Below, one piece after another: positions 2,611 to 23,805 of a stretch of DNA of 23,805 nucleotides. This stretch comes from a virus. Taxonomy: Duplodnaviria > Heunggongvirae > Uroviricota > Caudoviricetes. Position 1 is the stretch's first letter; each line of letters begins with the position of its first letter. The translations under genes were made by a program, and so were the position numbers. The notes beneath the pieces were generated by a model, which had not been told where the DNA came from, made no database searches, and saw only the letters and a program-made list of their open reading frames with translations. Where the stretch lies: IMG/VR virus record IMGVR_UViG_2619619130_000001; one strand, 5' to 3'.

Positions 2611-2685
2611 ACAAAAACCTTGACAGGTATCTTTTTTGATACCAAAATGATTTCACGAGCTATTAGATGATCACAATATATCACT
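2611..2685. promoter_or_regulatory. Divergent early control region (lysogenic vs lytic promoters/operators)
   Basis: 75-bp gap between divergent genes; TTGACA at 2620-2625; palindrome GTATC-N6-GATAC at 2627-2642; TGATCA-containing A/T-rich element before the 2686 start. Confidence 0.45.
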
Positions 2686-5181: not shown

Positions 5182-8004
5182 GTGGCAACGGAGTACATCA
5201 GAGACTGGCAACAACCACGCCATGCAGTCGGTGGCGAGGGAACGGGGGAGCCTGTCCGCCCCTCCCTTCTTTCTTCCTGGCTGGATGCCTACCGGGCAGA
5301 GAACGAGCGCCGCCAGGAAATGGCTGATGCGGCGTTCTCCGCTGCACCACTGGGCAATCTGATTAATAAAAGCCTGGACGCACAGGAAAAACAGGACAAA
5401 GCCATCACACTGGCAAGAGAAGCCAGAAAGCAGGCACGCGGTGCGGTGGATGAAGCCATGGCCTCGCTGCGTCTGCTGCCGTCCTATCTGCGTGATCCGC
5501 TTATCCGCCATCTCTCTTTCCTGCACAAAAAACAGGAATCTGGCCACCAGAAAGGCAAAAAGAACCAGCAGGCGGAACGCTATGCGAGCGGAACCCTGCG
5601 CAAAATATTCGAACGTCTGGCCCGCACCGACCGTCGCTGGCTGACTCCGGGTTATCGCTCCCTTGCCGGACGTGAACGTCTGGACGATTTGCTGTACCTG
5701 CCACAGCTCAACAAGCACCAGATACAGACGCTGGCCGTCATGACGGCGGCAATGTTCAGCAGCACCTTCGAAAAACTCTGCGATGGCTGTGGCGCGACCG
5801 ACGGCGAGCTGACCATGGATATAACGCTGAAGGCGTATCAGATGCTGGCCCGCATGGCGTTACATCTGCACACAGTGCCGCCGCATTATGACGCACTGAC
5901 AACAGACAAAGACCGGAAGAACGAACCGGACACGGAACTGCTGCCGGGTGCAATCCTCCGCCTGACCTGTGCGGACTGGTGGAAACGCAAACTGTGGCTT
6001 TTACGTTGCGAATGGAGAGAGGAACAACTCCGCGCTGCCTGTCTAGTTTCCAGAAAAACATCACCCTATCTGAGTCAGGACGCATTAAGTGAATTTCGCG
6101 CACAGCGCGAGAAAACACGCGATTTCCTGAAAAGTTTCATGCTGGAAAATGAAGACGGGTTCACGATTGATCTCGAGACAGTGTATTACGCGGGAGTAAG
6201 TAACCCGGTCCACCGTAAGGCAGAAATGATGGCCACCATGAAGGGACTGGAACTTCTGGCCGAAGCCCGTGGCGACAGAGCGGTGTTTCTGACTGTCACC
6301 TGCCCGTCAAAATACCACGCTACAACAGAGAACGGTCATCCGAATCCCAAATGGAACGGCGCCACCATGCGCGATTCCAGTGATTACCTGGTTAACACTT
6401 TTTTTAAGGCGGTCCGCAAAAAACTGAATCGCGACGGCCTGCGCTGGTATGGCATCCGCACGGTGGAGCCACACCATGACGGCACCGTGCACTGGCACAT
6501 GATGGTCTTTGCACATCCTGAAGAAATCGACAGCATCGTGGACATCACCCGTGATATTGCCATTCGCGAAGACCGCCACGAGCTGGGCAATGACATAACT
6601 CCGCGCTTTAAGGCAGAGTACGTCGACGGTTCGAAAGGTACGCCGACCAGCTACATCGCCACCTACATCGGAAAGAACCTGGACAGCCGCGCCGTGGATG
6701 GCATTGACCCGAAAACAGGCAAGCCACGCGTTGATCACGAAACCGGAAAATCAATGGCCGAGAGCGTGGAACGCGCCATCGGCTGGGCGCGCCTTCACCG
6801 CGTCCGCCAGTTCCAGTTCTTTGGTATCCCCTCCCGTCAGGTATGGCGTGAACTCCGCCGCCTTGCCAGTCAGATGGCCCGCAACCCGGAAGGTCCACAA
6901 CGTCTGGAAAATGACGCAATGGATGCGGTACTCGCTGCCGCTGATGCCGGGTGTTTTGCCACCTACATTGAGAAACAGGGTGGCGTACTTGTTCCACGCA
7001 AGGATTACCTGATTCGCACCGCCTACGACCTCGCAGAAGAGCTGAACGATTACGGCGAGCAAAGCGTACAGATTTACGGGATCTGGTCGCCACAAATCGG
7101 GGAATCTTCCCGCGTGTGCACGCACCCGGATAACTGGAAGCTGGTAAGACGTAAACCGGAAGCGGAAGACAGCGCCCGCGAAAATGGTTTTGACCTTCAG
7201 GGCGGCCCTGCCGCCCCTTGGACTCGTGGCAATAACTGTCCCCGTGTACAGGAAACGGACAACAACGGGACAGAACAGCCGGAAGAACGGCCATCACCGT
7301 GGCCGCAGCTTCCTGACGGCGTTGACGTGAATGAATGGATGCGCTCACTGAAACTGCACGAACGCCGGGCGCTGATGCGTTCGCTGCGTGACAAACAGGC
7401 AAAAAACAGCAGTGATGAAATGCAGAACTGGACACAGAGCCGCAAACAGCCACGGCCTTTGCCTGATAACCACGAGTTACTCGCTAAAGAATGGCGGGAG
7501 TCTGCTGAATCTCTCGGCCTGCATATCGGTGAACAGCAGATGCAGCACCTGTTACGGGGCGGCAGTCTGTACGTTGACGGCAGCATCATTGCACCGCAGG
7601 GATTTGAAATTGTACGCAAACCGGATACCCGCCCGGACAGCCGAATCACGCAGCTCTGGCAGCGCCTGAGCCGCAATCACGGCGTAAGCAGCACGGAGAT
7701 CCGCCATAACCCGGTCGCCAGCTATCTGGAACAGCTGGGGGCATCAGACCCCGAAGCCGCCGCACGCCTGGCATCCACACTTCAGCAGGACCAGAACACC
7801 ATGAAAACCCCCGTTACCGTGCTTTCTGACATGCTGCGCGCCATCCGTGACGCAGAGCACGCACAGAGAATCAGTGAAACCACTGAACGCGCCCACCGCA
7901 AAGCAGACCTGCTGCGGGGTAGCCTGACCAGTGGAAACAAAAAACAGACAGAAACGGGATTCACAAATCCCGTAAATGAGCAAAAAACGTGCCGCGATAT
8001 ATGA
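5182..8004 (+). CDS. A: Rolling-circle replication initiator / endonuclease (P2 gpA family)
   Basis: 940 aa; HxH metal motif (VHWHMMVFAH) and paired active-site tyrosines YIATYIGKN; position after early operon as in P2. Apparent GTG start at 5182. Confidence 0.88.
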   Translation: MATEYIRDWQQPRHAVGGEGTGEPVRPSLLSSWLDAYRAENERRQEMADAAFSAAPLGNLINKSLDAQEKQDKAITLAREARKQARGAVDEAMASLRLLPSYLRDPLIRHLSFLHKKQESGHQKGKKNQQAERYASGTLRKIFERLARTDRRWLTPGYRSLAGRERLDDLLYLPQLNKHQIQTLAVMTAAMFSSTFEKLCDGCGATDGELTMDITLKAYQMLARMALHLHTVPPHYDALTTDKDRKNEPDTELLPGAILRLTCADWWKRKLWLLRCEWREEQLRAACLVSRKTSPYLSQDALSEFRAQREKTRDFLKSFMLENEDGFTIDLETVYYAGVSNPVHRKAEMMATMKGLELLAEARGDRAVFLTVTCPSKYHATTENGHPNPKWNGATMRDSSDYLVNTFFKAVRKKLNRDGLRWYGIRTVEPHHDGTVHWHMMVFAHPEEIDSIVDITRDIAIREDRHELGNDITPRFKAEYVDGSKGTPTSYIATYIGKNLDSRAVDGIDPKTGKPRVDHETGKSMAESVERAIGWARLHRVRQFQFFGIPSRQVWRELRRLASQMARNPEGPQRLENDAMDAVLAAADAGCFATYIEKQGGVLVPRKDYLIRTAYDLAEELNDYGEQSVQIYGIWSPQIGESSRVCTHPDNWKLVRRKPEAEDSARENGFDLQGGPAAPWTRGNNCPRVQETDNNGTEQPEERPSPWPQLPDGVDVNEWMRSLKLHERRALMRSLRDKQAKNSSDEMQNWTQSRKQPRPLPDNHELLAKEWRESAESLGLHIGEQQMQHLLRGGSLYVDGSIIAPQGFEIVRKPDTRPDSRITQLWQRLSRNHGVSSTEIRHNPVASYLEQLGASDPEAAARLASTLQQDQNTMKTPVTVLSDMLRAIRDAEHAQRISETTERAHRKADLLRGSLTSGNKKQTETGFTNPVNEQKTCRDI

Positions 8005-8046
8005 AGCGCGCACAAAACAGGCAAAAGCGGGATTTAAAAATCCTGT
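7955..8046. promoter_or_regulatory. Two related palindromic boxes upstream of parM (CGGGATTCACAAATCCCG at 7955-7972; CGGGATTTAAAAATCCTG at 8028-8046); candidate ParR-binding/centromere-like or operator sites
   Basis: Imperfect ~30-bp direct repeat, each copy with an inverted repeat GGGATT-N-AATCC; the first lies in the last codons of A, the second in the A-parM gap. Confidence 0.4.
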
Positions 8047-8080
8047 AACCGATTAATTAATCAACATAAGGAAAAGCGAC

Positions 8081-9040
8081 ATGAAAATTTGTATCGACGA
8101 CGGCTCCACCAATATCAAGCTGGCATGGACTGAGAACGGCGAACGCCGCAACGCTATCAGCCCGAACAGCTTCAAGTCGGAATGGTCTGCGCCGTTCGGT
8201 GGCACGCAGCCCGCGAACTACATGCTTGATGGCGTGCGCTATGGTTTTGATCCGGTCAGCGATCGCTTTGTCCAGACGACCGACACGCAATACCAGTACA
8301 GCGATGTGAATGTCATTGCCATTCATCACGCGCTGGTCAAATCAGGCATCACACCACAGGAGGTGGATGTGGTTGTCACCCTGCCACTGAGCGAGTATTT
8401 CGACACAAACGCACAGCCGGACATGGCCAACATCAACCGCAAAAAAGCGAACGTTATGCGCCCGGTGGAGTACCAGAACGGCAAAGCATTCACTATCCGT
8501 AACGTACGGGTTATGCCTGAATCTATTCCGGCTGGCTTTAAAGCACTGGCTGACATGAGTCCGTTTGAATCCCTGCTGATTGTGGATTTAGGCGGAACCA
8601 CGCTGGATGTAGCAAAGGTTCAGGGACAACTGGCAGGTATCAGCCAGGTGTTTTGCGATCCACACGTAGGCGTTTCCCTGATGGCCGATGCAGTACTGTC
8701 GGTGATGGCCACTAACGGTATGCGTACCAGTCACCACATCGCCAATACCATTATCGAACATCGCCATGATGAAGCCTGGCTGCGCCAGCACATCCATAAT
8801 GACGCGCATTACGCCAGCCTGATGGCGGTTATTCGTGAAAAGGAAGAAACACTGAAACAACGCGTGATCCGCGCGCTGGCGGGTTTTTCGGGTTACGGGC
8901 GGGTGATGGTTGTCGGTGGCGGGGCGGAGATTGTGGCACCCGCTATCCGCGAAGCCTGCGGAGTTAATGCGACTTTCATCGCGGACGGGGGGCCACAGTT
9001 TGCTCTGGTTAATGGGCTGTACGCAATGGACAAGGAGTAA
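8081..9040 (+). CDS. parM: ParM/StbA-family actin-like segregation ATPase
   Basis: 319 aa; N-terminal CIDDGSTNIKLAW, SDVNVIAIHHAL, VMPESIPAG, LIVDLGGTTLDV and VMVVGGGAE motifs align along the length with plasmid R1 ParM as I remember it. Confidence 0.85.
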   Translation: MKICIDDGSTNIKLAWTENGERRNAISPNSFKSEWSAPFGGTQPANYMLDGVRYGFDPVSDRFVQTTDTQYQYSDVNVIAIHHALVKSGITPQEVDVVVTLPLSEYFDTNAQPDMANINRKKANVMRPVEYQNGKAFTIRNVRVMPESIPAGFKALADMSPFESLLIVDLGGTTLDVAKVQGQLAGISQVFCDPHVGVSLMADAVLSVMATNGMRTSHHIANTIIEHRHDEAWLRQHIHNDAHYASLMAVIREKEETLKQRVIRALAGFSGYGRVMVVGGGAEIVAPAIREACGVNATFIADGGPQFALVNGLYAMDKE

Positions 9041-9044
9041 ACCA

Positions 9045-9356
9045 ATGACGACTCCAACCAGACGGATAAGTTTCTATCTGAAGCCCGCCGCCGTCAAGAA
9101 CGAAGGAGAAGCATGCGCCTGGCTGGACAGCCTTACACCAGAAGCCCGCAAAAGCGGCCAACGCGTGGCTTTTCTGGCCGGGCTGGCACTTCTGAAAATG
9201 AATCCGGCAGAGGCTTACCGACTAGCTGCATGGGCTGATGATGAAGCGTTATCAGTGACACAAACCAGGACAGAACGCCCCGCATCACAGCCAGTATCAA
9301 CCGCACAGATAACCAGTCAGATGGCCGGAAATATCCGGGCGTTATTTCCTGAATAA
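9045..9356 (+). CDS. parR: ParR/StbB-like centromere-binding adaptor
   Basis: 104 aa from ATG 9045 (RBS AAGGAG); RRISFYLKP, WLDSLTPEARKSGQRVAFLAGLAL and C-terminal RALFPE resemble R1 ParR; directly follows parM. Confidence 0.72.
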   Translation: MTTPTRRISFYLKPAAVKNEGEACAWLDSLTPEARKSGQRVAFLAGLALLKMNPAEAYRLAAWADDEALSVTQTRTERPASQPVSTAQITSQMAGNIRALFPE

Positions 9357-9364
9357 CACAACAT

Positions 9365-9382
9365 CAGGGCGAGTTCGCCCTG
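9365..9382 (+). terminator. GC-rich stem-loop after parR (possible attenuator/terminator)
   Basis: CAGGGCG-AGTT-CGCCCTG hairpin seen directly; no clear U-tract, so weak as an intrinsic terminator. Confidence 0.3.
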
Positions 9383-9419
9383 CTCTCCACCTCAGAACAT
9401 AAACAAGGAGAACGACTTA

Positions 9420-9803
9420 ATGAGCGAAATCAACTATCAGGCATTACGTGAACGTTATTCACCTGTGCCAGTACCGAAATGCCCTATTTGCGGCGAGGAA
9501 ATGTCAATTCAGCGAATATCTGGAGCACAGGTTGTTTATGCCTGCTCCGGTTATGGTGATGATGGAGATTTCAAAATTGGTCGAACTCTTGCCGACGAAC
9601 ATTATGAAAAATCACGCGTAACAGTGTTGGATGTCGGGGATCCTGAAGTATTGGCGCTACTTGATTGGCTGGAAACCAAAGACAACCGAATCGCTGAACT
9701 GGAAAAAATCGCCACTGACTATGCACTTAAATTCCAGAAAGCACAGGACGCATTAAAGTACGCCGCTTTGCTGCATAGCAGGACAGCGCAGCTACAAGAC
9801 TAA
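9420..9803 (+). CDS. Hypothetical protein with CxxC zinc-ribbon-like motif and C-terminal coiled coil
   Basis: 127 aa; KCPICGEE...YACSG then heptad-like LDWLETKDNRIAELEKIATDYALKFQKAQDALKYAA; AAGGAG RBS; within the variable locus. Confidence 0.6.
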   Translation: MSEINYQALRERYSPVPVPKCPICGEEMSIQRISGAQVVYACSGYGDDGDFKIGRTLADEHYEKSRVTVLDVGDPEVLALLDWLETKDNRIAELEKIATDYALKFQKAQDALKYAALLHSRTAQLQD

Positions 9804-9893
9804 CTTAAAGCGGAAGATTAATACATGGTGAGTCAGGGTAATTTGTTTTTATCCCGACAAATAAACAAAAAAGTGGACTATCTCTGTAGTATC

Positions 9894-10424
9894 TTATTCA
9901 GCATCGTCTCGTGCAGTCTGTGCATACGTCACAACAACGCCCAATGCATTAGTTTTCTTTTCAACATAGATAATATTGTCATATTCATAGTTACCATACG
10001 GATAGCAAATAAGAATATTTTTATGCAGATCGGGATCATCAACAAACGCTCCGGAACAGCTTCTTGAACTACCGGATGTATACTCATACGGTGCAACATA
10101 TGATGATGTTACTCCTGGTAAAAAATAAGTCACCATCATAAGAGGGATAATCAGGAATATCCCTGTAAGAATGCAAGAGCCAGCATAAACCTTCAGGTAT
10201 TCCGACAGTCCTTTCCAGCCACTTTGCTTCACTACCCCCCTCTTCACCAGAAACAAGGAGAAGAAAAAGGACATACCCATACTACACAAGATGTAATAAT
10301 TGGATATACGCGAATTAAGATATGTAATCCTGTAGATATCTGCCCTCCACCAGTAAAAGAGGAAAATAATCCCTAGCACTGAAACAGTCATGCAAATCAA
10401 ATAAGGATATGAATCTTTCTTCAT
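9894..10424 (-). CDS. Integral membrane protein (about 3 TM helices + ~70-aa soluble C-terminal domain), function unknown; candidate exclusion/abortive-infection cargo
   Basis: 176 aa; hydrophobic segments LICMTVSVLGIIFLFYWW, YYILCSMGMSFFFSLFLV, AGSCILTGIFLIIPLMMVTYFL; strongly AT-rich unlike flanking phage DNA; convergent with the preceding gene. Confidence 0.65.
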   Translation of the reverse strand: MKKDSYPYLICMTVSVLGIIFLFYWWRADIYRITYLNSRISNYYILCSMGMSFFFSLFLVKRGVVKQSGWKGLSEYLKVYAGSCILTGIFLIIPLMMVTYFLPGVTSSYVAPYEYTSGSSRSCSGAFVDDPDLHKNILICYPYGNYEYDNIIYVEKKTNALGVVVTYAQTARDDAE

Positions 10425-10772
10425 GTCTTGCGCTCATTAAAATTTCCCTGCTACGAACAAATTTACCATCCGTTTTTTGCGCAGAAAACAGCACGATGCA
10501 CACTGCACGATAGTGCACAAATTTGCACAATTTTTTTGAACGACTTTTTACCCTTCCGGCCCGCATGGCGGCTGGATCCGTCAAGGATCCGTGCGTGCAC
10601 AAAAAAACGCGTTTTTTCTGCGCGCAGGTGACGGGGGAACAGCCCGCGTTTCAGGGGGTAAATAGCATTCCCTGAACGATGTCGCAGAGACACAACAGAA
10701 TGGCTGTATTTCTCACGCTGAGCGTGAAAAATACGTGAGGGATTCTGATTTGATGGGGTGAAAGGTAAGGCC

Positions 10773-10794
10773 GTCAAAATCGCACTGAGGCGGC
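10773..10794. other. Candidate cos (cohesive end) site
   Basis: GAGGCGGCAAAGAAC resembles the P2 cos sequence as I recall it (GGCGAGGCGGGGAAAGCAC) and lies ~165 bp beyond the Q stop, where P2 places cos. From memory, unverified. Confidence 0.3.
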
Positions 10795-10902
10795 AAAGAA
10801 CATGCAGTCAACGCGGTGGGATTGCGTAAGAGTCTGACCGCCGATGATGGCAATAAGCAGAAAAGCGTCGTGAAATTATCTGATTGATACAGGAGCTGGA
10901 GA

Positions 10903-22165: not shown

Positions 22166-23805
22166 ATGAGTACCACAACACGAAAATTTAAAACCATTAT
22201 CACTGATACTGGTGCCAAAAAATTAGCTCAGGCAGCCGCGCCAGATGGTAATCCTGTCCGCCTGACTCACATGGCCGTGGGCGACGGTGGCGGCACGTTG
22301 CCCACACCAGACAGTAAGCAGACCCGTCTGGTGCATGAGGTGTGGCGACATACTGTTAATCGCGTCATCCTGGACGCAACACATCAGAACCGCATTATTG
22401 CGGAGCTGGTTATTCCTCCTGAAACGGGCGGATTCTGGATCCGGGAAATTGGTGTATTTGATGAGCACGGCGATTTAATCGCGGTGGGCAATACTGCCGA
22501 AAGTTACAAACCAACCGTTGCCGAGGGGTCCGGACGTGCACAAACATTTCGCACCATTCTGACCGTATCCAGCACTGCCACCGTGGCGCTTACCGTGGAT
22601 AACACCATGGTGATGGCCACAGTGGATTACGTGAATGACAAACTGAAAGAACATGAACAGTCACGACGTCACCCGGACGCCTCGCTGACCGCAAAAGGCT
22701 TTGTTCAACTCAGTAGCGCCACTAACAGCACGTCTGAAGCACTGGCCGCAACGCCGAAAGCGGTCAAGACAGCCTATGACCTTGCTAACGGGAAATATAC
22801 CGCTCAGGACGCCACGACGGCACGAAAAGGAATAGTCCAACTCAGTAGCGCCACTAACAGCACGTCTGAAGCACTGGCCGCAACGCCGAAAGCGGTCAAG
22901 ACAGCCTATGACCTTGCTAACGGGAAATATACCGCTCAGGACGCCACGACGGCACGAAAAGGAATAGTCCAACTCAGTAGCGCCACTAACAGCACGTCTG
23001 AAGCACTGGCCGCAACGCCGAAAGCGGTCAAGACAGCCTATGACCTTGCTAACGGGAAATATACCGCTCAGGACGCCACGACGGCACGAAAAGGAATAGT
23101 CCAACTCAGTAGCGCCACTAACAGCACGTCTGAAGCACTGGCCGCAACGCCGAAAGCGGTCAAGACAGCCTATGACCTTGCTAACGGGAAATATACCGCA
23201 CAGGACGCCACGACGGCACGAAAAGGAATAGTCCAGCTCAGTAGCGTCACTAACAGTGATTCTGAAACGCTTGCCGCGACTCCGAAAGCGGTGAAAGCCG
23301 CTAATGACAATGCAAACGGGCGTGTGCCCTCTGGACGTAAGGTTAATGGCAAATCACTAGCCAATGATGTCAATGTTACATCGCAGGATATTTTTAACGA
23401 CCAGAGTATTGAGATTGGTGCAAATCAGAATCTGGATAATTACAAAACACCGGGGCTGTACCATCAGCCATTGAATGCCAATACAAGCGCAGCGCTGAAA
23501 TACCCGGAGAATTTTGCGGGTACACTGGTTGTGCTTAAAAATGCCGGGATAACACAGATTTACTATGTGTATGACACATCCAGAAGCTATACCCGCAGCC
23601 AGTACTCAACGGGTGACTGGACACCATGGACGCCACAAGATTCATTTCCGGTAGGTGCGGCGATACCGTGGCCTTCTGATTCAGTGCCTACAGGCTATAC
23701 CGTTATGCAGGGGCAGACTTTTGATAAAACAGTCTACCCCCTGCTTGCAGTCGCTTATCCGTCTGGTGTGATCCCTGATATGCGTGGCTGGACGATTAAG
23801 GGCAA
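22166..23805 (+). CDS. H: Tail fibre protein (P2 gpH family), 3'-truncated by window edge
   Basis: N-terminus [21 protein letters not shown]...MAVGDGGG...[17 protein letters not shown] matches P2 H; open reading frame continues to the last base of the window. Confidence 0.85.
22690..23290 (+). repeat. 132-bp (44-aa) in-frame tandem repeat within H: four near-identical units plus a diverged fifth
   Basis: Anchor CAGTAGCGCC recurs at 22711, 22843, 22975 and 23107 (period 132), with a diverged CAGTAGCGTC at 23239; encodes [44 protein letters not shown]. Confidence 0.9.

Follow-up and report, generated by a model that had tools for sequence, protein, structure and literature searches.

The stretch of DNA analysed here, called the window in the following, comprises 23,805 nucleotides (nt) of the virus record IMGVR_UViG_2619619130_000001 and represents the left two-thirds of a P2-family, P88-like (Xuanwuvirus) prophage. 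Downstream of the gene for its gpA-type rolling-circle replication endonuclease (5182-8004, + strand) lie two genes of the same orientation: parM (8081-9040), specifying an actin-fold ATPase of 319 amino acids (aa) of the R1/StbA type, and parR (9045-9356), specifying an adaptor of 103 aa if counted from the ATG, one residue less than the 104 aa given in a preliminary description of the region. A Shine-Dalgarno sequence, AAGGAA, precedes parM at 8068-8073. That of parR, AAGGAG (9032-9037), is situated within the 3' end of parM, and the two genes look translationally coupled.

The preliminary description had placed the pair inside an integrating P2-like phage, and the phage is indeed of this kind. 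A tyrosine integrase gene (156-1157, - strand) is intact, the capsid, portal, and terminase genes are those of the P2 family, and the 1601 bases from 7900 to 9500 are 100% identical to the chromosome of Escherichia coli H3, where the prophage adjoins yecA. The same segment is 95-98% identical to the DNA of Escherichia phage P88, Xuanwuvirus P884B11, Citrobacter phage phiSM, and relatives of these phages.

ParM is an R1-type segregation ATPase

By its domains and motifs, ParM is a member of the R1/StbA-type actin-like segregation ATPases. Pfam StbA_N is matched with an E-value of 3.8e-82 (274 bits, gathering cut-off 24.6) and the C-terminal domain with 2.5e-68 (230 bits, gathering cut-off 27.4). 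Using phmmer, R1 ParM (PDB entry 1mwk) was matched over residues 2-316 with an E-value of 8.7e-93, and identity to an R1-type plasmid ParM amounts to 47% over 318 residues. PHROG families 691, the one given for ParM, and 2515, both named 'partition protein', match the proteins of the module. A check of the ATPase residues had been suggested in the preliminary description; for this purpose DDGS(T), E148 in PES, D170 in DLGGTT, and GGGAE were inspected, with the residue numbering of R1 ParM drawn in part from PMC3794156. All motifs are intact and, in pairwise alignments, the same as in R1: IDDGSTN (phosphate 1), MPESIPAG (catalytic), DLGGTTLD (phosphate 2), and GGGAE (adenosine).

The gene is under strong purifying selection. 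Among six compared loci, dN/dS values of parM ranged from 0.02 to 0.14 (Nei-Gojobori), and the reading frames of both parM and parR are intact in all of them. In E. coli, parM is full length in 1280 of the 1303 records with a match.

ParR and its two alleles

ParR is a member of its family as judged by Pfam: the N-terminal ParR/StbB domain, PF10784 (Plasmid_stab_B), is found above threshold (E-value 1.6e-24, 85.9 bits, cut-off 25). The similarity of ParR to R1-type ParR is restricted to residues 6-61 (34% identity, E-value 2e-8). Both proteins had been described as R1-like across their length, which is true for ParM but not for ParR. A PDB search with ParR as a single sequence gave no match; with a profile of the phage ParR family, ParR of pB171 (2jd3) was the top match, though a marginal one (E-value 0.0089, residues 8-73 versus 10-74). 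The Pfam domains together with the 1mwk and pB171 matches bear out the identification of a type II ParM/ParR module. Neither of the outcomes that had been named beforehand as fatal to it, another actin-fold family for ParM or a lack of ParR similarity in its partner, was seen in the profile searches.

In an alignment of 16 phage ParRs and R1-type ParR, the N-terminal domain (residues 1-65) is nearly invariant among the phage proteins, including the predicted DNA-reading strand RRISFYLKP. The linker that follows (residues 66-92) is hypervariable, and the C-terminal motif NIRALFPE is again conserved, with N96, I97, F101, and P102 invariant (N-I-x-x-x-F-P). An AlphaFold2 model of the monomer, of low confidence with a mean predicted local distance difference test score of 60, contains helices at 20-29, 32-52, 54-61, and 86-100 and disorder at 66-85. 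The first two helices would be those of a ribbon-helix-helix fold; its strand is missing from the model, as would be expected if dimerisation is required for it to form. Foldseek comparison of this model to the PDB revealed no match with an E-value below 4, which is attributed to the poor quality of the model and to the protein being an obligate dimer. For a ParM-binding element, the conserved terminal helix is the obvious candidate.

Comparison of 9045-9356 of the window with parR of two other loci (L003:6001-6315 and L008:5001-5315) revealed two old alleles, designated A and B. Their products are 52-54% identical, and dS over codons 1-65 is 0.7-0.9. The parM genes next to both alleles are almost identical (dS about 0.08), which implies recombination with its breakpoint precisely where parM and parR meet. 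The N-terminal strand and the C-terminal motif NI(R/Q)xxFPE are nevertheless retained in both alleles, a pattern to be expected if selection preserves the binding of DNA and of ParM. Directly 3' of the parR stop codon, a GC-rich hairpin is present (9365-9382), which is not followed by a T-run on the + strand. It closes the conserved block in allele A loci and is missing from allele B loci; in one locus (L001), the stem is retained and the loop altered.

A conserved gpA-parM-parR block

The gene order of the window is integrase, helix-turn-helix repressor, a same-strand array of early genes extending to gpA, parM, parR, an Ead/Ea22-like gene, cargo of low GC content, and the portal, terminase, scaffold, and capsid genes. 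The gpA nickase, of 940 aa and with a long C-terminal extension (Pfam Phage_GPA, 4e-129), is the only replication protein found in the window. In a collection of 50,697 phage records, the 3' tail of P88-type gpA and parM are detected in the same 14 records, and in complete E. coli genomes the gpA tail occurs at 1529 places versus 1442 for parM. The spacing of gpA, parM, and parR is invariant in nine further loci, which differ in their integrases, occupy four integration sites, and carry varied genes downstream of the block (Fic/Phd, PAPS reductase, Ead/Ea22, or ogr directly).

The GC content of parMR (0.51-0.57) is like that of the phage backbone, and that of the cargo at 9400-10600 is 0.37-0.45. 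Thus, although formally located in the hotspot between gpA and gpQ, parMR are part of a core replication block and not shuffling cargo. Nor do they look like anti-phage defence cargo: the PADLOC defence models gave no match for the module, and its position beside gpA is fixed.

In the window, the truly variable part of the hotspot corresponds to the cargo island at 9400-10900, between parR and the portal gene. It contains the Ead/Ea22-like gene, which is truncated according to PGAP, and on the minus strand an open reading frame of 176 aa without a family match, frameshifted according to PGAP. In other P88-like loci, Fic/Phd, PAPS reductase, or a zf-C4_ClpX protein is encoded at this place. A contig of 33.6 kb from Logan SRR10097271 has gpA-parM-parR followed directly by ogr and the portal gene, and its structural genes are a mosaic of P2-type head genes with DUF2586 and HP1_Orf24-type tail genes. 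The replication-segregation block thus moves between different P2-family backbones. At the other end of the window, a 132-bp tandem repeat is found in 4.4 copies, 97% identical (22706-23292); its unit reads as a 44-aa repeat of the tail-fibre type and presumably lies in the tail-fibre gene, which runs off the window end.

Promoter signals

The best promoter score in the whole window was obtained for TTGACA-17-CAAAAT at 2620-2648 (+ strand), a probable early promoter equivalent to Pe and the sole consensus sigma-70 site on the + strand between 2500 and 11000. It is overlapped by a 30-bp direct repeat in 2.1 copies (2585-2648), located between the repressor gene and the early array, and this region probably constitutes the Pe promoter along with repressor operators. 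No terminator-like hairpin was found on the + strand between this promoter and parM. A consensus sigma-70 promoter belonging to parMR itself was not detected; the best site found with a position weight matrix in 7850-8078 reached only the 98th percentile of the window background. In the simplest reading of these signals, parMR would be the last genes of the early replication operon.

A candidate centromere upstream of parM

With Tandem Repeats Finder (minimum score 30), no tandem iteron array of the R1 type was detected in the whole window, in agreement with the preliminary description, which had noted no iteron-rich parC upstream of the genes. In an R1-type control plasmid, the A-rich 11-bp iterons ending in CCC were seen around a TTGACA promoter.

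What is present instead are two copies of a 38-nt direct repeat flanking the gpA stop codon. Repeat 1 (7938-7975) lies in the last gpA codons and contains the palindrome CGGGATTcacaAATCCCG at 7955-7972. Repeat 2 (8011-8048) is 82% identical to repeat 1, contains the palindrome CGGGATTtaaaAATCCTG at 8028-8045, and is located within the 76-nt spacer between gpA and parM, 33 nt before the parM start. The pattern CGGGATT-N4-AATCC(C/T)G has two sites in the window, both in these repeats, compared to 0.06 expected, and three of the four window occurrences of the heptamer AATCCCG are within 7930-8080. In the six compared loci, the palindrome arms are less variable than the loops. As a hypothesis only, the two palindromes may be considered a ParR binding site, and the repeats a candidate centromere or operator.

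Other arrangements were also considered. A centromere that travels with the parR allele was rejected, as variants of the upstream palindrome loops are uncorrelated with allele A or B. There was no support for a downstream parC; the sequence 3' of parR is unrelated between the alleles. A scan of genome contigs with a profile of the ParR alignment yielded three loci, too few and too alike for covariation of ParR and repeats to be assessed. An open reading frame at 7976-8056 (+ strand; 26 aa, MSKKRAAIYEARTKQAKAGFKNPVTD), which overlaps the gpA stop codon in the +1 frame, is probably not a gene. Its end repeats the C-terminal peptide of gpA, KKQTETGFTNPVNE (GF(T/K)NPV), since translation of both passes through the 38-nt DNA repeat in one and the same codon phase. 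As it is unannotated and lacks a Shine-Dalgarno sequence, the reading frame was treated as a by-product of the repeat.

Previous annotation and relation to known systems

The genes are routinely annotated. PGAP names them 'plasmid segregation protein ParM' and 'plasmid partitioning/stability family protein', RefSeq annotates the pair as well, and in the records of phage P88 and its relatives they carry the label parM or 'partition protein'. Rousset et al. (2022) mention a 'putative plasmid partitioning system' of P2-like phages, StbA and Plasmid_stab_B between gpA and gpQ, in a frequency of 'around a fourth' (PMC9122126). The proteins WP_000686485 and WP_000211282 of their supplement are ParM and ParR of locus L003 (PMC9122126). 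They class the module under 'other functions' and, beyond the remark, give no analysis of it (PMC9122126). In the list of Magaziner et al. (2019), it is a phiSM 'fitness' gene (PMC6456863). Literature searches revealed no functional study of P88-like ParMR. As the module is already annotated and discussed in print, with the same speculation on its role, it is not novel, contrary to what the preliminary description implied, and the sequence finding adds nothing to existing annotation. The details that are new here are the selection on parM, the tight linkage to the gpA tail, the two 38-nt palindromic repeats, and the lack of a recognisable sigma-70 promoter.

The system most closely related is ParMRC of R1 (stbAB of NR1/R100), with which the phage module shares the order parM-parR, the tight coupling of the genes, a ParM that is 47% identical over its full length, and a ParR of the same family, PF10784. 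The differences are considerable. R1 is a low-copy plasmid, whereas the phage element is integrated into the chromosome, and the ParR lineage described here occurs only in P2-like prophages. A parC like that of R1, ten 11-bp iterons flanking the promoter, is absent from the phage, nor was a consensus promoter detected upstream of the genes that would correspond to the ParR-autoregulated sigma-70 promoter inside parC of R1. With 103 aa, phage ParR is 13 residues shorter than R1 ParR (116 aa) and has no C-terminal tail, and the predicted DNA-reading strand is RRISFYL compared to RTIAFKL in R1. ParR of pB171 par2 (StbB, 2jd3), a plasmid system with two iteron clusters, matches the phage family in the ribbon-helix-helix domain, but the C-terminal halves are unrelated. 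The only other R1-type ParM in the phage collection is StbA of Escherichia phage D6 (47.8% identity). D6 is a 91-kb P1-like plasmid prophage that needs partition for inheritance, whereas P88-like phages integrate.

A proposed role in moving free phage genomes

The module is a genuine, selectively maintained type II pair, consisting of a ParM filament and a ParR adaptor, in the gpA-parM-parR core block of P88-like phages. We propose that, during expression of the early operon, it segregates or positions free circular phage genomes. We assign this proposal a probability of about one half; where ParR binds, when the genes are expressed, and which cargo is moved are what we infer within it.

P2 replicates by a rolling circle initiated by gpA, and the resulting monomeric circles are the substrate for packaging. 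In the proposed mechanism, parMR would make up the far end of the early lytic operon and be transcribed, along with the gpA nickase, from the Pe-like promoter at 2620. ParR dimers would bind DNA via a predicted N-terminal ribbon-helix-helix domain, probably at the two CGGGATT-N4-AATCCCG palindromes by the gpA stop codon, and their conserved C-terminal helix (...NIRALFPE) would capture growing ParM-ATP filaments. These filaments could then push apart or position free phage circles after infection, after excision, and during replication driven by gpA. What the phage would gain is efficient replication or packaging, and either daughter cell would receive circles ahead of integration or lysis; the upkeep of a plasmid prophage would not be the purpose.

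The closest functional analogue of such a role is known from another host phylum and another type of phage. Prophage CGP3 of Corynebacterium glutamicum encodes AlpAC with alpS, in which the actin-like AlpC is induced early together with the co-transcribed adaptor AlpA (PMC4446434, PMC5539076). AlpA binds upstream of its own operon, and circular phage DNA is replicated efficiently only with AlpAC (PMC4446434). The P88-like proteins are a close R1-type ParM/ParR pair; the comparison with AlpC and AlpA is one of function.

Several points weigh against the proposal. For a phage lysing within one generation, a need for segregation is not obvious. The candidate binding site consists of two palindromes only, compared to ten iterons in R1, and repeat 1 is located inside coding sequence. 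About 12% of the columns are variable in the gpA-parM spacer of the six loci, close to the synonymous or neutral rate, so that conservation argues only weakly for a centromere and no selection is claimed. The 34-residue C-terminal tail of R1 ParR has no counterpart in phage ParR in the alignment, and the ParM-binding peptide of R1 ParR consists of its last 17 residues (PMC3794156). With that tail missing, coupling to ParM is assumed from the conserved terminal helix of phage ParR. The structure model of ParR is of low confidence and found no Foldseek match. Finally, a weak or non-consensus promoter within the gpA-parM spacer is possible.

Distribution and the possibility of a plasmid prophage

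The alternative that comes next is a facultative plasmid prophage, in which ParMR would keep P88-like phages as low-copy episomes besides integration. It was suggested by Rousset et al. (PMC9122126) and was one option of the preliminary description. The pair is a complete partition system of the plasmid type, and the other R1-type ParM of the phage collection is found only in a true phage-plasmid, D6. The distribution of the module gives little support to this option. Among 5426 complete E. coli genomes, parM was detected in 1302 (24%, in agreement with the frequency published by Rousset et al.), including O157:H7, O104:H4, O103, O26, and ST131 strains, and 1440 of its 1442 places are chromosomal, the remaining two being on plasmids. 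The ParR lineage hardly extends beyond Escherichia and its close relatives, and by tblastn plasmid copies are located only inside P2-like prophages. A ParR of 93% identity, accompanied by a P88-like prophage, was also encountered on a 226-kb contig of 'Vagococcus sp. WN89Y' (NZ_JBQPOM010000071.1), a genome labelled as a Firmicute; most likely, this is contamination or mislabelling with an enterobacterial contig.

A single phage-sized circular P88-like record with the module is contained in PLSDB, NZ_CP148288.1, with 34.4 kb, deposited as a plasmid in a complete genome. This record speaks for an episome at first sight. However, the integrase is kept in it as it is in the window, no replicon was assigned by MOB-suite typing, and its integrase and immunity region has chromosomal matches in 319 genomes, with 99.7-99.9% identity in the best hits. 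Moreover, a complete P2-like phage without partition genes, pENTAS02 of Enterobacter soli (NC_015969.1, 1-32574), has likewise been deposited as a circular plasmid. Such records can represent excised or replicating phage, and since the par-less pENTAS02 is among them, they do not demonstrate a plasmid lifestyle. With only two to four phage-sized P2-like 'plasmid' records, one of them without par genes, numbers are too small to look for an enrichment of parMR. pENTAS02 itself carries genes for integrase, gpA, Dam methylase, PAPS reductase, ImmA/IrrE, and a BRCT-domain protein, and MOB-suite gives a replicon cluster for it.

Phage-plasmids are carried extrachromosomally by a copy-controlled replicon, usually without an integrase, a description that does not fit the P88-like phages. 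Rolling-circle replication of the gpA type is not known to be copy-controlled. We therefore regard a plasmid prophage as unlikely. Judged from sequence, a function in the lytic phase as part of the early operon fits the gene layout better than an episomal one.

Further alternatives

A broader version of the proposed role would combine both ideas. By analogy, gpA-parM-parR could be one 'replicate-and-move' machine that segregates the rolling-circle monomers and in addition couples functionally to gpA as R1 ParM/ParR does to TraI. Through this coupling, P88-like phages could facultatively pass through a carrier phase as episomes, either ahead of integration or following excision. We consider this version doubtful.

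Somewhat more doubtful is a function of the module as an accessory of the gpA nickase, which it might stimulate or localise, or as a co-opted cytoskeleton. The near-perfect linkage to P88-type gpA with its C-terminal extension and the position of repeat 1 in the gpA tail would suit a nickase accessory, and R1 ParM and ParR bind and stimulate the HUH relaxase TraI (PMC4949242). For the cytoskeleton there is a precedent in CorMR of Anabaena, a chromosomal ParMR repurposed for cell shape (bioRxiv 10.1101/2025.06.27.661541). These are analogies only, however; co-transcription of the genes within a single replication block would account for the linkage just as well, and ParR retains the strand and domain typical of centromere binders.

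Exclusion or incompatibility, exerted by the lysogen against related phages or plasmids sharing the centromere, appears improbable. The module does lie between gpA and gpQ, in the hotspot that harbors old/tin in P2 and many defence systems (PMC9122126), and variable cargo such as Fic/Phd or PAPS reductase follows downstream. But the negative PADLOC result, the backbone-like GC content, the lack of cargo-like shuffling, and the failure to detect an own promoter argue against such a function, and Rousset et al. file the module as 'other functions'. A plasmid target is not evident either, because ParR on plasmids was found only inside P2-like prophages. A functionless remnant hitch-hiking since an old recombination between plasmid and phage, for which the lack of a demonstrated function and of an R1-type parC could be cited, is hardly credible in view of the low dN/dS values of parM, the intact reading frames in six loci, the predominance of full-length parM in E. 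coli, the complete set of ATPase motifs, and ParR termini conserved despite a hypervariable linker.

Roughly one in four E. coli genomes carries the module, an actin-like segregation motor in an integrating phage. If it acts on free phage genomes as proposed, it would constitute a second case, and one genetically tractable in E. coli, of the principle represented by AlpAC of CGP3, the organisation or partitioning of free phage circles, and it would have a bearing on how temperate phages escape abortive lysogeny.

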